A stretch of DNA of 64,000 bases, taken from contig CP066691.1 in assembly GCA_016432485.1 (NCBI GenBank), positions 217,294 through 281,293 on the forward strand. The letters run 5' to 3'. Made by a program: the position numbers and the translations under genes. Below, one piece after another: positions 11,478-63,705 of this stretch (the stretch's first letter is position 1; each line of letters starts with the position of its first letter). Below the pieces are notes generated by a model, which made no database searches, was not told the origin of the DNA, and saw only the letters and a program-made list of their open reading frames with translations. The stretch comes from Candidatus Niyogibacteria bacterium. GTDB lineage: Bacteria; Patescibacteriota; Minisyncoccia; HO2-45-28.

Positions 11478-13181
11478 TTATTTTATAACGGCTCTAACAC
11501 GGCGCACCCCCGAAGCCACCGCCTCCTCTTTGATAATTGAAAATTTGCCTATCTCGCCGGTTTTAGCCACATGCGGTCCGCCGCATAACTCGCGGGAAAT
11601 CAAATTATCACCAACGCCGATGCTGTAAACCTTAACTTTTTTAGGGTATTTATGCTTGAAAAATGATAATGCTCCAGACTTAACCGCTTCTTCATAATCC
11701 ATCTCTTTCATTTTAACATTTAAATTTTTTTCTATCATCTTATTTACAAGCGATTCAATTTTTTTCAATTCTTCGGAAGTCAGTTTGCGCCCGAATGAAA
11801 AATCAAACCTCGCGCGTTCTGGCGTGATGTCCGAGCCCATTTGTTTAACATCCTTGCCCAAAACCTCGCGAAGCGCGGCTTGCAAAAGATGGGTCGCCGT
11901 ATGCAATCTTGTAACTTTTTGCAATTCTTCCTCACTCCCCGCTTTCAGCTCGCCCGTATCCAGAATAAGCCCGTGCCCGCCGAATTTTTTTTCTTGCCCC
12001 GCTTTTGAAATTTCCTGATGACGCGCAAATTCCTTGTCAAAATCCTCTCTTTTGAGCTTCGCCGCTTTTTCTCCCCCGACCTCTTTAATGATCTCGTAAG
12101 GCAGGCCGTATGTCTGGTATAAATCAAAGGCAATTTTGGCGTTAATGGCGTTCTGCTTTTCCAGTTCCTTAAGCCCGTGTTCAAGCGTTTTGGAAAATTT
12201 TTCTTTTTCTTCGCTCAAGACGGCAATTATCGCATCCGCGTCAAGTTTATAATGCGCATAGTTTTCGTTTTCAACGATAATTTTTATAACTTCCCCGATA
12301 TTCGCGCCGTAAAATATTATCCTGCGCATAAGTCGGCGTAAAACATAACCCTGTTCCTTGTTTGAAGGCAAAACTCCATCCGAAATCAAAAAGGCGGCCG
12401 CTCGGATATGGTCGGCTATTATTCTTTTCACACGAATGTTATCGTACTTTTCCGAGATTTTAATCGCATTTATGGTCGGCTCAAATAAATCCGTCTCAAA
12501 AATATTTTTCTTTTTTTGAACCAGCATCACCAAACGTTCAAATCCCCACCCGACATCAACGCCCTTTTGCGGCAGTAAAGTTAAACTCTGGTCTTTGGCG
12601 CAAAAATATTCCATAAAAACAAGGGTCGCTACTTCCAAATCGTCAACATACACCTCGTTTGCCGCTCCGCACGGTCCCTCGGCCCCGGCCGGTCCCCAAA
12701 TGTTATCCTTACGCGGACCTTTGCGGATATGGTCCGAAGGTAAAAATTTGGACCAGGCCTCGTATGACTCCGAGTCAAATGGAATTTTTTCATCACCTGC
12801 AAAAACTGTGGCTGAAATCCTCCCGGACTCAATATTAAAAACTTCGGTCAATAATTCGTAAGTCCACTTTATAGTTTCTTTTTTAAAATAATCCCCGAAA
12901 GAAAAATGTCCCAGCATTTCAAAAAAGGTAAGATGCGATTCATCGCCCACTTCATCAATATCCGAGGTGCGCATTGATTTTTGAATTGAAACAGTATTGA
13001 GCGAGCCGAAATCGCGCATCGGATCGGCTTCGCCCGTAAAATACGGCTTAAATTGCTGCATTCCGGCTGTGGTAAAAAGCACCGAGGGGTCGTCGGGTAT
13101 AAGCGAAGAAGACGGTCTAACCGTATGTCCTCTTTTTTTGAAAAAATCCAAAAATTTTTCTCTTATTTCTTGGGAAGTCAT
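11478..13181 (-). CDS. alaS: Alanine--tRNA ligase, short form (567 aa: catalytic, tRNA-recognition and editing domains, no C-Ala domain)
   Basis: MTSQEIREKFLDFFKKRGHTVRPSSSLIPDDPSVLFTTAGMQQFKPYF; editing-site HTATHLL...CGGPHV zinc ligands. Confidence 0.88.
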   Translation of the reverse strand: MTSQEIREKFLDFFKKRGHTVRPSSSLIPDDPSVLFTTAGMQQFKPYFTGEADPMRDFGSLNTVSIQKSMRTSDIDEVGDESHLTFFEMLGHFSFGDYFKKETIKWTYELLTEVFNIESGRISATVFAGDEKIPFDSESYEAWSKFLPSDHIRKGPRKDNIWGPAGAEGPCGAANEVYVDDLEVATLVFMEYFCAKDQSLTLLPQKGVDVGWGFERLVMLVQKKKNIFETDLFEPTINAIKISEKYDNIRVKRIIADHIRAAAFLISDGVLPSNKEQGYVLRRLMRRIIFYGANIGEVIKIIVENENYAHYKLDADAIIAVLSEEKEKFSKTLEHGLKELEKQNAINAKIAFDLYQTYGLPYEIIKEVGGEKAAKLKREDFDKEFARHQEISKAGQEKKFGGHGLILDTGELKAGSEEELQKVTRLHTATHLLQAALREVLGKDVKQMGSDITPERARFDFSFGRKLTSEELKKIESLVNKMIEKNLNVKMKEMDYEEAVKSGALSFFKHKYPKKVKVYSIGVGDNLISRELCGGPHVAKTGEIGKFSIIKEEAVASGVRRVRAVIK

Positions 13182-13260
13182 TTATATATTTATAATAGCA
13201 AAAAACAACCCGCGTTGAAACGGGCAAGAAACATACAGAATATCCAACAGAATATCCAAA

Positions 13261-13297
13261 GTAACATCTTTTGATACAATTGTCAGAAATATGTTAC
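13261..13297. repeat. Copy A (slightly degenerate, 37 nt) of the 36-bp palindromic element GTAACATATTTCTGACAATTGTCAGAAATATGTTAC, overlapping the 5' end of the Cas2-like gene
   Basis: gtaacatcttttgatacaattgtcagaaatatgttac; right half perfect, left half has 3 mismatches and 1 indel. Confidence 0.85.
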
Positions 13298-13300
13298 CAT

Positions 13301-13840
13301 ATGATTTATATGAAAAAATTGCCTATTACTGATAAGTTTTTGTGGAAATTATACGATCTGATAGAAAAGGCGGATGATGTGGTTGACTTTATCGGGCCGG
13401 GAACGATGTCCGAAACTGTTTACCCCGACACCAGACGTTTGCGGCACGAGTACAAGAAGGAAAACGCCAGACGAAAATTCAGCCAGTTTATGATGTACTT
13501 ACAAAATCGGGGTTATATAAAAACCAAAGCTCTGGAAGGAACAACGGGAGTGCTTTTAACGCCCAAAGGCAAGAAAAAGGTTTTACTGACAAAAAGAAAG
13601 TTTGGCGAGAAGAAAAAACGCAAAGACGGATCTTGGATTATGGTTATATTTGACATACCTGCAAAATTAGGGACGATAAGACACGTTTTGCGAGATCGTT
13701 TAAGGTGGCTTGGATATCAACAACTTCAAAAGAGTGTTTGGGTGTGCCCCTATGACACGCACAGAGAAACCGAGGAAATTATAAGAGAACTTCGCTTGAC
13801 CTCTTATGTCAAAATATTTTTTATAAAAGAGATAATTTAA
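13301..13840 (+). CDS. Small protein with an N-terminal wHTH-like region and a C-terminal Cas2-like (PaaX-C-like) domain. Orphan: no cas1 and no CRISPR array in the window
   Basis: C-terminal WIMVIFDIPAKLGTIRHVLRDRLRWLGYQQLQKSVWVCP fits the Cas2 strand-helix pattern (hydrophobic-YDI...R..L...G.R.Q.SV). The ORF track begins at a TTG at 13271 inside the repeat; the ATGs at 13301 and 13310 are more likely starts. Confidence 0.55.
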   Translation: MIYMKKLPITDKFLWKLYDLIEKADDVVDFIGPGTMSETVYPDTRRLRHEYKKENARRKFSQFMMYLQNRGYIKTKALEGTTGVLLTPKGKKKVLLTKRKFGEKKKRKDGSWIMVIFDIPAKLGTIRHVLRDRLRWLGYQQLQKSVWVCPYDTHRETEEIIRELRLTSYVKIFFIKEII

Positions 13841-13888
13841 AACATGTACAAAAAGAATTTGACGTCAATCGGCATTAAGTTAAACCCA

Positions 13889-13924
13889 GTAACATATTTC
13901 TGACAATTGTTAGAAATATGTTAC
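13889..13924. repeat. Copy B of the 36-bp palindromic element, 48 nt downstream of the Cas2-like gene
   Basis: gtaacatatttctgacaattgttagaaatatgttac, a near-perfect palindrome with one central mismatch. Confidence 0.9.
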
Positions 13925-13940
13925 TAGTATTTGGAATGGA

Positions 13941-15110
13941 TTATTTTATTATTCCGCCGCCGAGCATTTCTCCACATTTATAAAAAACAGCCGATTGGCC
14001 AGGGGTTGCGGCTTTTTGTGGCTCATTAAAAACAACCCTTACCTTCCCCCCGTCCGTGGACTTCCGAAGTCCACATTTTTGAAGGGGCTGGCGGTAACGG
14101 ATGCGCGATTCGCAATTTAACGGAAGCTCTGGTTTAATTCCTCCAATCCAATTTATATCAGTGATTTCAATTTCTTTTTCGTAAAGCGCGGGGTCTAAAT
14201 CTCCTTCAGCGACAATGAGGGTGTTAGTTGCGGCTTCTTTCGCGGCAACATAAAGCGGCTCGGAGGTGCCGCCGATTTTAATTCCGTGCCTTTGCCCCAA
14301 AGTGTAAAAATTAAGGCCGTCGTGCTCGCCTATTATTTTTCCGGAGGTAGTCGCAATCGGCCCCGGATTTTTTGGTAAAATTTCGCGTAAAAAATCGCTA
14401 AAATCAACCTTCCCCACAAAACAAAGACCTTGGGAATCCTTTTTATCGGCTGTCGGCAGTCCGAATTTCCTCGCCATTTCTCTGATTTCGCTTTTTAGAT
14501 AATCCCCTATCGGAAATAAGGCGTGTTTGAACTGATTTTGCGTAAGACGCCACAAGAAATAACTTTGGTCTTTCGCGCTATCGCGCGCAGCGTGCAAAGA
14601 AAAATTCGAAGCACTAATATCGAAACTCGAAACAAATTCCAAATTCGAATTTTCCAAATTCAAAACATTTCTTTTATTTAGGATTTGGGGGTTAGATATT
14701 ATTTCGGATTTCTGATTTCTGATTTCTGATTTTCGGACGTAGTGCCCCGTCGCCACAAAGTCCGCGCCAAGCGCCAGAGCTTTTTCCAAAAAAATACCGA
14801 ATTTTATTTCCGAGTTGCAAAATACATCCGGGTTTGGCGTTCTGCCAACAGCATACTCACGCACCATGTAATTAAAGACGCGCTCGCGATATTCTTTCTC
14901 AAAATCAAAAATATAAAATGGTATTTCCAGTTTTTCGGCAACCGCCCTCGCATCTTCAGCGTCTTTCTCAACACTGCACTGGTCCCACGCCGACCAGCAC
15001 TTCATATGGCATCCAACCACTTCAAACTTTCCGCTTTTTTTAAGCAAAGCGGCTGCGACCGAAGAATCAACTCCTCCCGACATCGCTACGAATACTTTTG
15101 GCCTTTTCAT
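13941..15110 (-). CDS. mnmA: tRNA-specific 2-thiouridylase MnmA, with an internal low-complexity insertion
   Basis: MKRPKVFVAMSGGVDSSVAA PP-loop; CHMKCW; the insertion coincides with a 7-bp tandem DNA repeat. Confidence 0.88.
   Translation of the reverse strand: MKRPKVFVAMSGGVDSSVAAALLKKSGKFEVVGCHMKCWSAWDQCSVEKDAEDARAVAEKLEIPFYIFDFEKEYRERVFNYMVREYAVGRTPNPDVFCNSEIKFGIFLEKALALGADFVATGHYVRKSEIRNQKSEIISNPQILNKRNVLNLENSNLEFVSSFDISASNFSLHAARDSAKDQSYFLWRLTQNQFKHALFPIGDYLKSEIREMARKFGLPTADKKDSQGLCFVGKVDFSDFLREILPKNPGPIATTSGKIIGEHDGLNFYTLGQRHGIKIGGTSEPLYVAAKEAATNTLIVAEGDLDPALYEKEIEITDINWIGGIKPELPLNCESRIRYRQPLQKCGLRKSTDGGKVRVVFNEPQKAATPGQSAVFYKCGEMLGGGIIK
14701..14736. repeat. Tandem heptamer (atttctg/atttcgg) x5 inside the mnmA coding sequence
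   Basis: atttcggatttctgatttctgatttctgattttcgg. Confidence 0.85.
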
Positions 15111-28753: not shown

Positions 28754-28814
28754 TCTCCTTCCTCAACGCAAAATATAAAGTGCTTTCAAAATGTATTTTA
28801 TGAAAAATTTAAGA

Positions 28815-28900
28815 GAAAATCAAAAAGAAGAAACCCACCAGATTGCGACCTGGTGGGTTCTGACCGAGCGCGAAGCTCGGCCGGTTAGGATTGGTCAGAA
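28815..28900 (-). terminator. Terminator module R1, one of two ~80-nt near-identical copies. Minus-strand reading: a CCGAGC/GCTCGG hairpin, then CCCACCAG-gtcgcaat-CTGGTGGG, then TTTCTTCTTTTTGATTTT
   Basis: Direct repeat of 29605-29692 with about 90% identity over about 75 nt. Confidence 0.8.
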
Positions 28901-29558: not shown

Positions 29559-29579
29559 ACTTTAAAGAATTCCAACGCT

Positions 29580-29607
29580 ATTATAATATTTTTTGGGAAG
29601 CTGTCAA
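29580..29607 (-). promoter_or_regulatory. Consensus sigma70 promoter on the minus strand, TTGACA-N16-TATAAT
   Basis: fwd tgtcaa 29602-29607, attata 29580-29585. Confidence 0.65.
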
Positions 29608-29692
29608 CAAAAAATCAAAAAGAAGAAACCCACCAGATTGCGACCTGATGGGTTCTGACCGAGCGCGAAGCTCGGCGGTTGGGGTTGGTTGG
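29605..29692 (-). terminator. Terminator module R2, duplicate of R1, directly after GC-rich ORF B
   Basis: Same hairpin and T-run as R1, with a G-to-A change in the stem. Confidence 0.8.
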
Positions 29693-32915: not shown

Positions 32916-32950
32916 ATTTCAAAAAATTTCTAATTACTAATATCTAATTT

Positions 32951-34213
32951 TTAAAGATTTTGCGGGCGTTCAACAAGTTCCGCTTCCACTTTTAATTCTT
33001 CGGCGTTGCGCAATACTTTCAATTCCACTTTTTCACCCACTCTCCTTTGGCTTATCAATTTGGCTAAAGTGTTATCTTTATTCACTCTCACGCCGCCGAA
33101 CTCTAATATTATATCACCTTCTTTCAGGCCTGCGGCCTGCGCCGGAGAATTGTTTATAATCGCGGTCCGGCCTTCGCCCGCAATCAAGAGCGCGCCGTAA
33201 TCAACCGACAATTTCTTTTCTTCTTTAATTTGCGGCGTAACTGAAAGATAATGAACGCCCAGATAGGCATAGCTTATCTTTCCGAAATCGCGTACGTCCG
33301 AGACGGCTTTTTTCACGGAATTTATCGGCAAAGCGAATCCGATGCTCTGGGCTTCGGAGGCGACAGCAGTATTAATGCCGATGGCCCGTCCGGCCGAATC
33401 CAGCAGCGGACCGCCGGAATTTCCAGGGTTGATCGCGGCATCGGTTTGGATTACTTCCTGCAAAACTTCAGGGCCGGAAGCGGATCCGGAAGCGACGATC
33501 GTCCGGCTAAGTCCGGCGATGACTCCGACTGAAACCGTATTTTGAAATTCACCAAGAGCGTTGCCGATGGCCACGACTGTCTGACCGACTTTAAGATTGT
33601 CTGAATTTCCAAGCGAAATAAAAGCAAACCCGCCGCCGTCCACTTTCAAAATCGCGACGTCCTGAACCGAATCTCGCGCCAAAACTTCAGCCTTCATTTT
33701 CCGGCCGTCGTTCATTAAAACCGTGTATTCAACGGTTTTATCTTCAACCACGTGGCGATTGGTGACCAGATATCCATCCTCAGTTACAAAAAATCCGGAG
33801 CCGGCTGAAATCTGCCTTTTTTCAGTTCCTTTTTGGCGGTATTGCGGAACTAAAATCTGCGGCATCTCTCCTGAAAAAAACCGCCGGAAGAAATCATCGT
33901 TTTCAAAGGGATTGATGAAATATTGTTCTATGACCGGAACGTCTTTGGAAGCGGTAATGCTGACCACCGCCGGCAAAGTGTCGGCAACAAGCTTGATAAT
34001 TAAACCTTCCGAAGTAATAATAAAATCCGAATTTTGCTTTTGGTTATCCGACTTATTGTCTATCACTTTCTCAATCACCCGATTGATGGTTTGGGTTATT
34101 GGAGCCGGCGCCTGATTAACCAAAGTCACGCTGACAATGCCGGTAACAAGCGAAGTTATAAAACTCACCAAAAGAACCAGCAAAACTAATTGTGTTTTTG
34201 TCAGATTTTCCAT
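32951..34213 (-). CDS. htrA: HtrA/DegP-family serine protease with an N-terminal membrane anchor and a PDZ domain
   Basis: GSGFFVTEDGYLVTNRHVV (His), D, GNSGGPL (Ser) triad context; C-terminal PDZ. Confidence 0.85.
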   Translation of the reverse strand: MENLTKTQLVLLVLLVSFITSLVTGIVSVTLVNQAPAPITQTINRVIEKVIDNKSDNQKQNSDFIITSEGLIIKLVADTLPAVVSITASKDVPVIEQYFINPFENDDFFRRFFSGEMPQILVPQYRQKGTEKRQISAGSGFFVTEDGYLVTNRHVVEDKTVEYTVLMNDGRKMKAEVLARDSVQDVAILKVDGGGFAFISLGNSDNLKVGQTVVAIGNALGEFQNTVSVGVIAGLSRTIVASGSASGPEVLQEVIQTDAAINPGNSGGPLLDSAGRAIGINTAVASEAQSIGFALPINSVKKAVSDVRDFGKISYAYLGVHYLSVTPQIKEEKKLSVDYGALLIAGEGRTAIINNSPAQAAGLKEGDIILEFGGVRVNKDNTLAKLISQRRVGEKVELKVLRNAEELKVEAELVERPQNL

Positions 34214-35111: not shown

Positions 35112-35210
35112 CCCGCCGCTCTGATAGAGTGGCGGGTTTTTTTACCCCCACACCAATTGAGCAATAGCGCCTCTGGCGCAAAATAAAAAATTGCTCAATT
35201 GGTGTGGAGG
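35112..35210. terminator. Composite element E1: a GC hairpin terminator (CCCGCC...GGCGGG plus T7), then an 18-bp perfect inverted repeat CCACACCAATTGAGCAAT (24-nt loop) ATTGCTCAATTGGTGTGG
   Basis: Second copy of the same architecture at 58735-58835. Confidence 0.75.
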
Positions 35211-35211
35211 T

Positions 35212-39510: not shown

Positions 39511-40791
39511 TTACCACACCGTGCGAACAAACTTTTTGTGAATTTCTTTAAGCGCGCGGATAAAATAATCTATTTCTTCTTTGGTATTGTAAATATAAAA
39601 ACTTGCTCGTAATGTCGCGAGAACGCCCAAATGCTTCATCAAGGGTTGGGCGCAATGGTGGCCGGCGCGAACCGCTATGCCATATCGGTCAAGCATGGTT
39701 GCCGCATCATGCGGATGAATCCCGTCCCGGTAACATATTTTCGACAATTGTTGAAAATATGTTACTCCGCAAATATTAAACGAAATAATTCCGGTGCGGT
39801 CCTTTGTTTTTTCAAATCCGAGCAAGTCCACAAACGGCAGTTTTTTCATTTTTTCCAGCGCGTATTTTAAAAGTTCGCGCTCGTGATGCTCAATATTTTT
39901 CATTCCGATTTTTTTCAAATAATCAATTGCTTCGCCGAACAAAATCGCGCCTTCTATATTCGGTGTGCCCGCTTCAAACTTCCACGGCAAATCATTCCAA
40001 GTTACGCTTTTAGCCGTAACCTCGCGTATCATCTCGCCTCCTGACATAAACGGCTCCATACTTTCCAAAATTTCAGATCTCCCCCAAAGCGCGCCGATGC
40101 CTGACGGCGCTAGCATTTTATGACCCGAGAAAGCGAAAAAATCGCAGCCGATTTTACGAACGTTCACCGGAATGTGTCCGGCAGATTGAGCGCCGTCAAT
40201 CAAAATCAAAGCCCCGACTTTATGCGCCTCTTTACATATTTTTTCAACCGGATAAATATAGCCGGAGACGTTTGAAATGTGGGCTACGGCGACTAATTTT
40301 GTTTTTTTAGTCAATTTTTTTCTGAAATCCGTGAAATCAAAATCGCGCGTTGATGTTAATTTGACGATATCCAGTTTTAATCCGCGCTCGCGAGCCAGAC
40401 GCAGCCACGGCACAAAATTGGAATGATGCTCCGAAATCGTCGTCAGTATTCTATCGCCTCTTTTAAATTTTCGCCCCAAAGAGTAAGCGACTAAATTGAC
40501 GGCTTCGGTGGCGTTACGGGTGAAAATTATTTCTTTAGAACTTTGCGCGCCGATAAAATCGGCGGCTTTTTGTCGGGAGAGCTCAAATTCTTTCGTGATT
40601 TCTTCGGCCATCTGATAGGCCCCGCGATGCACATTGGCGTAAGAATGCGCGTATAGTTTTTTCAGCCGCTCCGTAATAATTTTCGGCTTCTGGGTAGTGG
40701 CGGCGTTGTCAAAATAAACAATAGCGCGTCCGTTTATTTTTCGCGTAAGTACCGGAAAGTCCTTTTTTATTTTTTTGAAATTAAAAATCAT
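39511..40791 (-). CDS. sufS: Cysteine desulfurase SufS (class V aminotransferase, PLP-dependent), carrying a 12-residue in-frame insertion encoded by the palindromic element
   Basis: ...HKMLAPSGIGALWGR..., active-site region RAGHHCAQPLM; the insertion ...SFNICG[VTYFQQLSKICY]RDGIHPHD... sits where canonical SufS has about 4 residues. Confidence 0.88.
   Translation of the reverse strand: MIFNFKKIKKDFPVLTRKINGRAIVYFDNAATTQKPKIITERLKKLYAHSYANVHRGAYQMAEEITKEFELSRQKAADFIGAQSSKEIIFTRNATEAVNLVAYSLGRKFKRGDRILTTISEHHSNFVPWLRLARERGLKLDIVKLTSTRDFDFTDFRKKLTKKTKLVAVAHISNVSGYIYPVEKICKEAHKVGALILIDGAQSAGHIPVNVRKIGCDFFAFSGHKMLAPSGIGALWGRSEILESMEPFMSGGEMIREVTAKSVTWNDLPWKFEAGTPNIEGAILFGEAIDYLKKIGMKNIEHHERELLKYALEKMKKLPFVDLLGFEKTKDRTGIISFNICGVTYFQQLSKICYRDGIHPHDAATMLDRYGIAVRAGHHCAQPLMKHLGVLATLRASFYIYNTKEEIDYFIRALKEIHKKFVRTVW
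39730..39765. repeat. Copy C of the 36-bp palindromic element (GTAACATATTTTCGACAATTGTTGAAAATATGTTAC), codon-aligned and in frame inside sufS
   Basis: Hand translation of the minus strand gives exactly 12 codons, VTYFQQLSKICY, with no stop. Confidence 0.9.
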
Positions 40792-41388
40792 TTAAACTAA
40801 AAGTGTTTTTATAATTTTCTCCGTTTCCGCCAAACCCAAACCGGCCCGCGAAAGGGGCGCTGATAAAAATCCCGCGCTTTTCAGCCGCTCCGCCTTAATC
40901 CGGTCAACTCCTCTTGTCGCCATATAAAAAATATCTTCGTCGGATATTTTAGATACGGTTGCCGCGTGTCCCGCCCGTTCAACTTCGCTTGTCAGTATTT
41001 CCAGACGGGGGTCTACGCGACAGCTTGCCTCATCAAAAATAATCGCCCGTCCGTCAAACCATGCGCTGGAATTCTTCGCGGCGCTACCAACCTTCACGTT
41101 CCCGGCAATCTCTCCCGATGAATCGTCTCTGCCGATGCAGCGAACCATAGTGTTTGAAAAAGAATTTTCTCCCAGATGGTTCACGCGTATATTTATGCTT
41201 ATTTTATCCGTTTTACTCGCCGAAAACAAAAAAATATTGGTCAACTTTGCCCATTCGGCCAGATTGAATTCCAGATTCCCCGCGAAACTTTTTACCCCAC
41301 CTAAAAGCCAGACAAAGGTTTTTTTTTGGTTGGAGGAGATGCGAAAATTTTTGTCTATTTTTTTACTTTTAATAAATTCTATTTTCAA
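40792..41388 (-). CDS. sufD: Short SufD-like protein (SufBD family, 198 aa, C-terminal beta-helix region only)
   Basis: ...AGHAATVSKISDEDIFYMATRG..., similar to the SufB/SufD C-terminus; placed between sufB and sufS. Confidence 0.65.
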   Translation of the reverse strand: MKIEFIKSKKIDKNFRISSNQKKTFVWLLGGVKSFAGNLEFNLAEWAKLTNIFLFSASKTDKISINIRVNHLGENSFSNTMVRCIGRDDSSGEIAGNVKVGSAAKNSSAWFDGRAIIFDEASCRVDPRLEILTSEVERAGHAATVSKISDEDIFYMATRGVDRIKAERLKSAGFLSAPLSRAGLGLAETEKIIKTLLV

Positions 41389-41426
41389 AATTTTTAGAAA
41401 TTAGAAATTAGTAATTAGAAATTGCA

Positions 41427-58734: not shown

Positions 58735-58835
58735 CCGCCGCGGGTCAGCAAGACCGCGGCATTTTTTTACCCCCACACCAATCTGGCAATGACGCTTTTA
58801 AGCGCGTGAGAAAAATTGCCCGATTGGTGTGGGGG
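58735..58835. terminator. Composite element E2: a GC hairpin terminator (GCCGCGG...CCGCGGC plus T7), then a 21-bp imperfect inverted repeat CCCCCACACCAATCTGGCAAT (24-nt loop) ATTGCCCGATTGGTGTGGGGG. Same family as E1
   Basis: Shared TTTTTTTACCCCCACACCAAT...ATTGGTGTGGRGGTTTAT framework. Confidence 0.75.
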
Positions 58836-58847
58836 TTTATTTTCTCA

Positions 58848-63587: not shown

Positions 63588-63610
63588 AATTCCATTATAT
63601 CAAATGTCTA

Positions 63611-63705
63611 AAGGTTTAAAAGTTTAAGGGTTTAAAAGTTTAAGGGTTTAAAAGTTAAAGGGTTTAAAAGTTTAAGGGTTTAAAAGTTTAAAGGTTTTAT
63701 TATAA
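63611..63705. repeat. Tandem 16-mer (gggtttaaaagtttaa) x about 6, intergenic between gap and trxB
   Basis: aaaggtttaaaagtttaagggtttaaaagtttaagggtttaaaagttaaagggtttaaaagtttaagggtttaaaagtttaaagg. Confidence 0.9.

Follow-up and report, generated by a model that had tools for sequence, protein, structure and literature searches.

PaaX is the phenylacetyl-CoA-responsive repressor of Escherichia coli and Pseudomonas. Its two-domain core appears to recur in the product of a small gene, here termed gene X, that lies in a stretch of 64,000 nt from a Candidatus Niyogibacteria bacterium (assembly GCA_016432485.1, contig CP066691.1, positions 217,294 to 281,293 of the forward strand; this whole stretch is referred to below as the window). 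Gene X belongs to a family from Patescibacteria, bacteria with very small genomes, and is bracketed by two palindromes of about 36 bp (copies A and B, Table 1). This bracketing had already been recognized in the original prediction made for this DNA, which read it as a nuclease-like gene that propagates or domesticates a palindrome family, in the manner of the tyrosine transposases associated with repetitive extragenic palindromes (REPs; RAYT for the transposase), or else as a mobile cassette. We find that gene and palindrome are paired across the family and that two residues of the protein co-vary with the bases at the palindrome center. Based on these data, we propose that protein X is probably a DNA-binding regulator and that palindromes of 36–44 bp are its cognate sites.

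Several described systems resemble this locus in part. Protein X differs from PaaX in that it has no PaaX_C effector domain, scores below the TIGR02277 cut-off and has no paa genes nearby, and for these reasons it is not a PaaX ortholog; its predicted sites differ as well, since they are 36–44 bp long, adjoin the gene of the regulator itself and are found within coding sequence too. In comparison with the Cas2 of CRISPR (clustered regularly interspaced short palindromic repeats) systems, the Cas2-like domain of X carries a fused winged helix. The 64-kb window contains no CRISPR array, and none of the homologous loci whose gene tables were read contains a cas gene (the open reading frames, ORFs, of the window were not searched explicitly for cas1), which together argue that X is not a CRISPR Cas2. 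The locus is reminiscent of REP/RAYT systems, in which palindromes of 20–40 nt bracket the gene and further copies lie between convergent 3′ ends. However, protein X has no Y1/HUH domain, its palindromes are perfect and loop-less with a conserved center, the orientation of the flanking copies is inconsistent, the genomic position is kept in many lineages, and a related genome holds at least five copies as opposed to the hundreds known for REPs. IS200/IS605 elements carry TnpA/TnpB and imperfect subterminal hairpins, whereas the X locus encodes no such domain and its palindromes are perfect and loop-less. Because no Y1 domain is present, X is neither a RAYT nor an IS200/IS605 component, and the original assignment to such an arrangement has to be abandoned.

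For one of the copies, the one within sufS, a likeness exists to the Rickettsia palindromic elements (RPEs), which are in-frame palindromic insertions that leave an enzyme gene intact (PMC10969869). RPEs measure ~100–150 nt (PMC10969869), whereas the insertion in sufS is 45 nt long, is the single such insertion seen and represents the predicted cognate site of a linked DNA-binding protein. It also differs from miniature inverted-repeat transposable elements by having no clear combination of terminal inverted repeat and target-site duplication and by its very low copy number. Literature searches combining PaaX with Cas2-like, or Patescibacteria with palindromic and Cas2, found no paper describing the X family or its palindromes.

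Fold and family of protein X

Gene X encodes 176 residues, somewhat fewer than the 180–190 first predicted for what was rightly taken as a small gene with a Cas2-like C-terminus. Its N-terminal winged helix is formed by helices at residues 6–22, 41–50 and 57–66 and a wing at residues 70–83; a linker helix (residues 85–98) leads to a Cas2-like domain (residues 109–172) with a β-α-β-β-α-β arrangement. The PaaX_M profile (PF20803) matches X with 75.7 bits, far above its gathering score of 24, and matches 28 of 28 members of the family, while TIGR02277 reaches 27.5 bits against an equivalog cut-off of 264.55. The Cas2 profiles are close to their thresholds, with a marginal pass for TIGR01573 (26.1 vs a cut-off of 24.5) and a score of 18 for Pfam Cas2 (PF09827), under the gathering score of 23.8. 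In structure comparison, E. coli PaaX (PDB 8a39) is the top match for X and the Cas2 fold is present in the C-terminal domain, with relatives including 3exc and 3ui3; together with the PF20803 match this bears out the predicted Cas2-like C-terminal domain. Asp115 is invariant in the family and aligns with the metal-binding Asp of Cas2.

Profile searches did not find the PaaX_C effector domain in X, the chain of which stops at residue 176, nor a Y1/HUH domain (PF01797) in X or in the 28 family members, for which only PaaX_M and a weak Cas2 match were obtained. The family is large, with 5,854 clusters at E ≤ 1e-3, and its best matches are mostly 170–230 aa long. No relatives were found among viral contigs, no PHROG matched and PADLOC returned weak Cas2 matches only, and a phage or defense origin of X was rejected on these grounds. 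We regard X as a compact, probably DNA-binding protein of the PaaX type, made of a winged helix and a Cas2-like domain and devoid of the PaaX effector domain.

Gene–palindrome pairing and residue–base co-variation

Eighty metagenomic loci carrying homologs 39–59% identical to X were scanned for palindromes, giving 81 loci with the window included. In 59 of the 81, a loop-less palindrome of ~18–50 bp (34–50 bp for the stronger ones) adjoins the gene, either on both sides (26 loci), upstream only (17) or downstream only (16). Palindromes reach a density of 1.76 per kb at up to 160 nt from the gene ends vs 0.095 per kb elsewhere, an 18-fold enrichment. The association is far from random and is a conserved property of the family. 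Upstream sites end ~3–30 nt 5′ of the X start codon; downstream sites overlap the X stop codon or begin no more than ~40 nt after it, and often stop ~13–50 nt before the next co-directional gene. As to relative orientation, the upstream and downstream sites are direct in 5 loci and inverted in 3, with 15 loci undecidable, and on this basis the idea that they are terminal inverted repeats was rejected.

An architecture of outer box, A/T-rich spacer and central palindrome is common to the sites of all lineages while their sequences vary. Eight distinct cores occur among the lineages: the central 6-mer is CGATCG at 40 sites, CGGCCG at 20, AAGCTT at 18, CTATAG and CACGTG at 2 each, and CAGCTG, AACGTT and the CAATTG of the window at one each. 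The inner 8 bp are the same at the upstream and the downstream site in 21 of 21 loci, and at some loci further sites with the same core are present. One site lies inside a MurF-like ORF, at the same codon position in three lineages (L040, L025 and L026), and carries the core of its own lineage, ACGATCGT (encoding TIV) or ACGGCCGT (encoding TAV). Its retention with a lineage-specific core indicates that a DNA-level constraint overrides the protein sequence there. The X homolog is preceded by a MurF-like gene in 27 loci and followed by a FemAB-like gene in 25, whereas another lineage has it between 6-phosphogluconate dehydrogenase and transketolase; its neighbors outside the window are peptidoglycan or pentose-phosphate genes, and the gene occurs in at least three different genomic contexts.

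Arm mismatches are unevenly distributed. None is found at distances 1–4 from the center and they are rare at 13–19, being concentrated at 5–12. As read from the arm sequences, such a profile is that of a bipartite protein-binding site and the opposite of what hairpin stability would lead one to expect.

Within the Cas2-like domain, the amino acids at two positions follow the central bases. Residue 141 belongs to the motif LQ-x-SVW, at the turn between β2 and β3. Of 29 loci with an AT center, 25 have K or R there, and of 26 with a GC center, 25 have Q; K/R is never associated with GC. Residue 118 comes first after FDIP. All 40 loci with G at −2 have E at this residue, and all 15 loci with A at −2 have Q, A or K; the window combines A118 with CAATTG, and a relative 74% identical to X (P0002/L094) combines E118 with CCGATCGG. 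Residue 141 has switched independently several times: L022 (CGATCG, K) is surrounded by CGGCCG/Q relatives 79–84% identical to it, L020 (CGGCCG, Q) stands inside a CGATCG clade, and L044 and L021 (both R) stand next to the Q-bearing L045 and L048. The base changes that track residues 118 and 141 are always symmetric about the dyad, for which a symmetric dimer on duplex DNA is the simplest explanation. The co-variation suggests that the Cas2-like domain of X reads specific bases at the dyad, a property that, to our knowledge, has not been described for Cas2.

In the window itself, the 8-mer core of the palindrome occurs at three places only, namely copies A, B and C, and shuffled sequence gave zero matches to the palindrome. 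Copy A had been described as slightly degenerate and as running into the first codons of the gene; it is indeed degenerate in its left spacer, which deviates by a 1-nt indel and substitutions, but stops short of the true start codon. It retains an intact core ACAATTGT and intact outer boxes GTAACAT/ATGTTAC; its right arm matches the left arm of copy B perfectly over 22 nt in inverted orientation, and its left arm AACATCTTTTG is the arm found at locus L094. Copy B is near-perfect and begins 48 nt past the X stop codon, both as predicted, and its sequence is identical in the related genome (L001). The copies carry a common short asymmetric flank (CCMR on one side, or YKGG as read on the other strand), so that what was copied extends slightly beyond the palindrome.

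A scan of species-representative genomes located the palindrome family in one related metagenome-assembled genome, GCA_964574495.1, labeled Candidatus Saccharibacteria. Copies A and B recur there, as does the sufS copy, together with two solo copies; an exact half-site pattern matched four of its contigs with about five copies, one of them intragenic, a count that is a lower bound. The first solo copy (L012, 4722-4757) separates the convergent genes efp and fpg, both of which take their TAA stop codon from it, by GTAAC on each strand. The second lies between tatD and a convergent aldehyde dehydrogenase-like gene, the latter assigned from sequence.

Two further kinds of repeat-related feature were seen at the homologous loci. 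Other, unrelated families of perfect palindromes of 34–48 bp recur within single Patescibacteria contigs, e.g., GCCAAATAAATGGCTAAAATAGCTATTTTAGCCATTTATTTGGC (L067 228-271, 281-324 and 9625-9666; L069 8094-8127, 11383-11416 and 17093-17126; L018 5909-5952 and 11684-11731; L052 12957-13000), and for this reason long perfect palindromes seem to be common in Patescibacteria genomes. Separately, a gene of 240 aa with a weak match to Y1_Tnp (IS200/RAYT-type) lies ~3.5–4.8 kb downstream of the X homolog in the pentose-phosphate cluster (L095 14004-14726, L096 4451-5173, L017 14784-15497) and is 68% identical between two lineages. The Y1_Tnp-like gene of L095/L017 has no match in the window, and a linked RAYT was rejected as a candidate.

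Proposed mechanism and competing explanations

From the fold, the conserved pairing, the identity of cores within a genome and the residue–base co-variation, we infer, with somewhat better than even confidence, binding itself, its contact geometry and its regulatory outcome as follows. Protein X would bind the 36–44-bp palindromes as a symmetric dimer on double-stranded DNA, with the Cas2-like domains seated on the dyad and reading the central base pairs. The two winged helices would contact the outer boxes ~13–18 bp from the center, the A/T-rich spacer lying between the contact zones. Since copy A overlaps the likely X promoter, X may repress its own gene through this copy. Nearby genes may also be under its control as a small local regulon, through repression or a roadblock effect, because most lineages have the downstream site immediately 5′ of the next co-directional gene, with further sites near or inside neighbors. 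In the window lineage, any action of a dimer at the extra copies (between convergent genes and in sufS) would be that of a roadblock or insulator. The most likely function of X would thus be that of an autoregulated repressor or roadblock. The candidate promoter inside copy A would start transcription at or just before the ATG and yield a leaderless or very short-leader mRNA; it is a consensus match only, and the count of such sites in the scanned region equals the shuffle expectation. A promoter built into every palindrome (−35 TTGACG, −10 TATA) was also considered and dropped, as it suits some lineages, not all.

What is new here is a putative minimal PaaX-like DNA binder with unusually long, co-evolving palindromes that flank its own gene, are occasionally intragenic and are occasionally copied. 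A widespread uncharacterized family thereby gains a concrete target, a palindrome of 36–44 bp, the center of which is apparently read by two residues of a Cas2-like domain. If this is true, residues 118 and 141 constitute a simple specificity code and a Cas2 fold serves to read DNA sequence-specifically, a point relevant to the recruitment of Cas2-like modules. It would also follow that a predicted protein-binding site can be copied into the essential gene sufS with the reading frame kept.

Several observations weigh against a regulator with cognate sites. Copy A is the only copy of the window located 5′ of a gene; copy B and both solo copies lie between convergent 3′ ends and copy C lies inside sufS, none of which is the position of a classical operator. 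Spacer differences within a locus comprise 37 compensated vs 39 asymmetric positions, including symmetric indels, and compensated changes are not predicted by protein recognition alone. Quasipalindrome template switching in replication renders imperfect inverted repeats more perfect (PMC7202029), and this process could account for the compensated spacer symmetry with no hairpin function needed. Regarding the protein, the first structure model of X is of low confidence in the wing (residues 70–97) and the second in residues 22–36. Finally, because Asp115, at the Cas2 metal position, is invariant, X may have catalytic activity.

This last point bears on the alternative that survives best, although we consider it unlikely, namely that X is a palindrome-specific nuclease or mobilization factor, a RAYT analog built on the Cas2 fold, which would cut or nick at the dyad, copy the solo sites and move the module. 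If true, a cutting Cas2-like dyad reader would explain the sufS insertion, the common flank and the module relocation, and would tie Cas2 DNA handling to protein-associated palindromic repeats outside CRISPR. Some mobility is real on the evidence of sufS, where the copy is a recent insertion. The 45-nt insertion encodes CGVTYFQQLSKICYR and consists of copy C flanked by 6 nt on one side and 3 nt on the other. Neither the solved SufS structures nor the 12 nearest homologs (66–81% identical) have it, and the insertion-bearing allele was recovered on eight contigs from several samples. The empty site (L098) reads TTT AAT ATA / AAA AAC GTC CAT and the filled site TTT AAT ATT [TGC GGA - palindrome - CGG] GAC GGG ATT CAT, i.e., a clean, lineage-specific insertion flanked by CGG(G)A direct repeats. 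A clean target-site duplication was sought and none is definable, as the order CGGA-[palindrome]-CGGGA-CGGGA in the sense of the gene requires extra events under any simple model. The insertion could have been templated, with priming at the GGG(A) microhomology.

Relocation of the whole unit likewise speaks for mobilization. In L099, the nearest other species recovered in our searches, mnmA and alaS are separated by 34 nt, vs ~759 nt in the window, where the spacer contains in addition copy B, gene X in antisense, copy A, a 12-nt tandem repeat and a terminator-like hairpin. The palindrome-gene-palindrome module of the window is missing from the L099 spacer and therefore moves as a block over evolutionary time. 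The variety of contexts occupied by the gene, the asymmetric flank that makes the copied unit longer than the palindrome, the REP-like location of solo copies between convergent genes, and an invariant Asp115 that occupies the catalytic position of Cas2 close beside the base-correlated residue 118 all fit the same explanation. Against it, however, profile searches revealed no known transposase or recombinase domain in X, the copy number in the related genome is very low, synteny is kept in 25–27 loci and the intragenic site is held in place across lineages. The inconsistent orientation of the flanking copies and the missing relatives among viral contigs and PHROGs also argue against it, and Asp115 can equally be read as a helix N-cap in a D-I-P-E motif. 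Rare templated copying, in which template switching during replication keeps the arms symmetric, accounts for how the copies spread better than a dedicated transposase does. Of the propagation or mobile cassette first envisaged, the copying of the palindrome and the relocation of the unit thus stand, while the RAYT-type transposase mechanism does not.

Less probable still is that the palindromes act as RNA hairpins, in processing, stability or bidirectional termination, and that X, as an RNA-binding protein or RNase, recognizes them with a Cas2/VapD-like domain. In favor of this, perfect stems of 16–18 bp can form, compensated arm changes are present, the elements lie between cistrons and at convergent 3′ ends, and Cas2 and VapD relatives include RNases (3exc, 3ui3). 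In single-stranded DNA folding, copies B and C form 16-bp stems (z-scores ~ −6.7) and copy A folds poorly. On the other hand, the central 4–6 nt that would have to form the loop are almost always self-complementary and are the best conserved part, the mismatches fall in mid-stem, G·U and A·C pairs on the sense strand number 26 vs 17, which is no significant excess, and the base changes tracking residues 118 and 141 are invariably dyad-symmetric. No Rfam family matched the elements, nor does a U-tract follow the stems. The central dyad symmetry, the mid-arm mismatches and the residue–base co-variation therefore favor a dimeric binder of double-stranded DNA over a hairpin-processing transposase.

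It is very improbable that the palindromes are cores for site-specific recombination (lox-, dif- or integron-like), with X as an accessory or architectural factor and the recombinase encoded elsewhere. On this view, the X cassette would be excised or inserted by recombination of its two sites, and solo copies would represent empty attachment sites. Two inverted arms around a 6–8-bp center that is identical between the sites of one genome would suit such cores, as would a cassette found in the window and not in its relative and the existence of solo sites. Such a cassette is disfavored, however, since the empty L099 site has no palindrome and no recombinase is linked at any locus; moreover, the identity of the centers is equally explained by their co-variation with X residues, the arms are far longer than known recombinase core sites, and the recognized boxes are not next to the center. 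That an unrelated repeat merely happens to flank X, the coincidence allowed for in the original prediction had the palindrome shown no enrichment near this gene family, has a negligible probability: the small copy number in the window would fit it, but 59 of 81 paired loci, lineage-specific sequences, the 18-fold enrichment and the residue–core co-variation refute it.

Neighboring genes and other repeats of the window

The features of the window are compiled in Table 1. The genes alaS, mnmA, mltG and PCMT were found near the X homolog in none of the 80 homologous loci, and the MurF-like, FemAB-like, FtsQ-like, hydrolase and SerS neighbors that are common at those loci are not present in the window.

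Table 1 Positions of gene X, the palindrome copies and other features of the 64-kb window
Feature	Positions	Strand	Remark
alaS	11478..13181	-	divergent from X
Extra DNA between alaS and copy A	13182..13260		12-nt tandem repeat and terminator-like hairpin
Terminator-like hairpin	13208-13225	-	
12-nt tandem repeat	13235-13259		directly 5′ of copy A
Palindrome copy A	13261..13297		37 nt; ends 12 nt 5′ of the true start codon of X
Promoter-like site inside copy A	13271..13300	+	-35 TTGATA, 18-nt spacer, TG, -10 TACCAT
Gene X	13310..13840	+	mini-PaaX protein, 176 aa
Palindrome copy B	13889..13924		36 nt, one G·T mismatch; between convergent 3′ ends of X and mnmA
mnmA	13941..15110	-	convergent with X
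100-nt direct repeat	28782-28881; 29577-29676		near tRNA genes
38-nt inverted repeat pair	32925-32962; 41386-41423		8.4 kb apart
~68-nt long-stem elements	35144-35211; 58769-58836		
45-nt in-frame insertion in sufS	39727..39771	-	contains copy C
Palindrome copy C	39730-39765		within sufS
16-nt tandem repeat	63609-63697		near the window end

The tandem repeat preceding copy A has the unit ACAGAATATCCA repeated 2.1 times; three units are present in L001. The MnmA protein of the window has 389 aa and includes a low-complexity insert of ~40 aa (SEIRNQKSEIISNPQILNKRNVLNLENSNLEF...), which is lacking in the 350-aa MnmA of the related genome.

Other repeats lie farther from gene X. Each of the two ~68-nt elements reads ACCCCCACACCAAT..CAAT, 24 nt with an inner GC hairpin, and ATTGC..ATTGGTGTGGRGGT; both directly follow a terminator-like GC hairpin with a T-run, the differences between their arms are mostly compensating, and no Rfam family matched them at the gathering score. 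The copies of the 100-nt direct repeat are 85% identical and end in the same GC-rich hairpin sequences, and the 16-nt tandem repeat consists of 5.6 units of TAAGGGTTTAAAAGTT. The members of the A/T-rich 38-nt inverted repeat pair are 92% complementary, and one arm is located just upstream of the suf genes.
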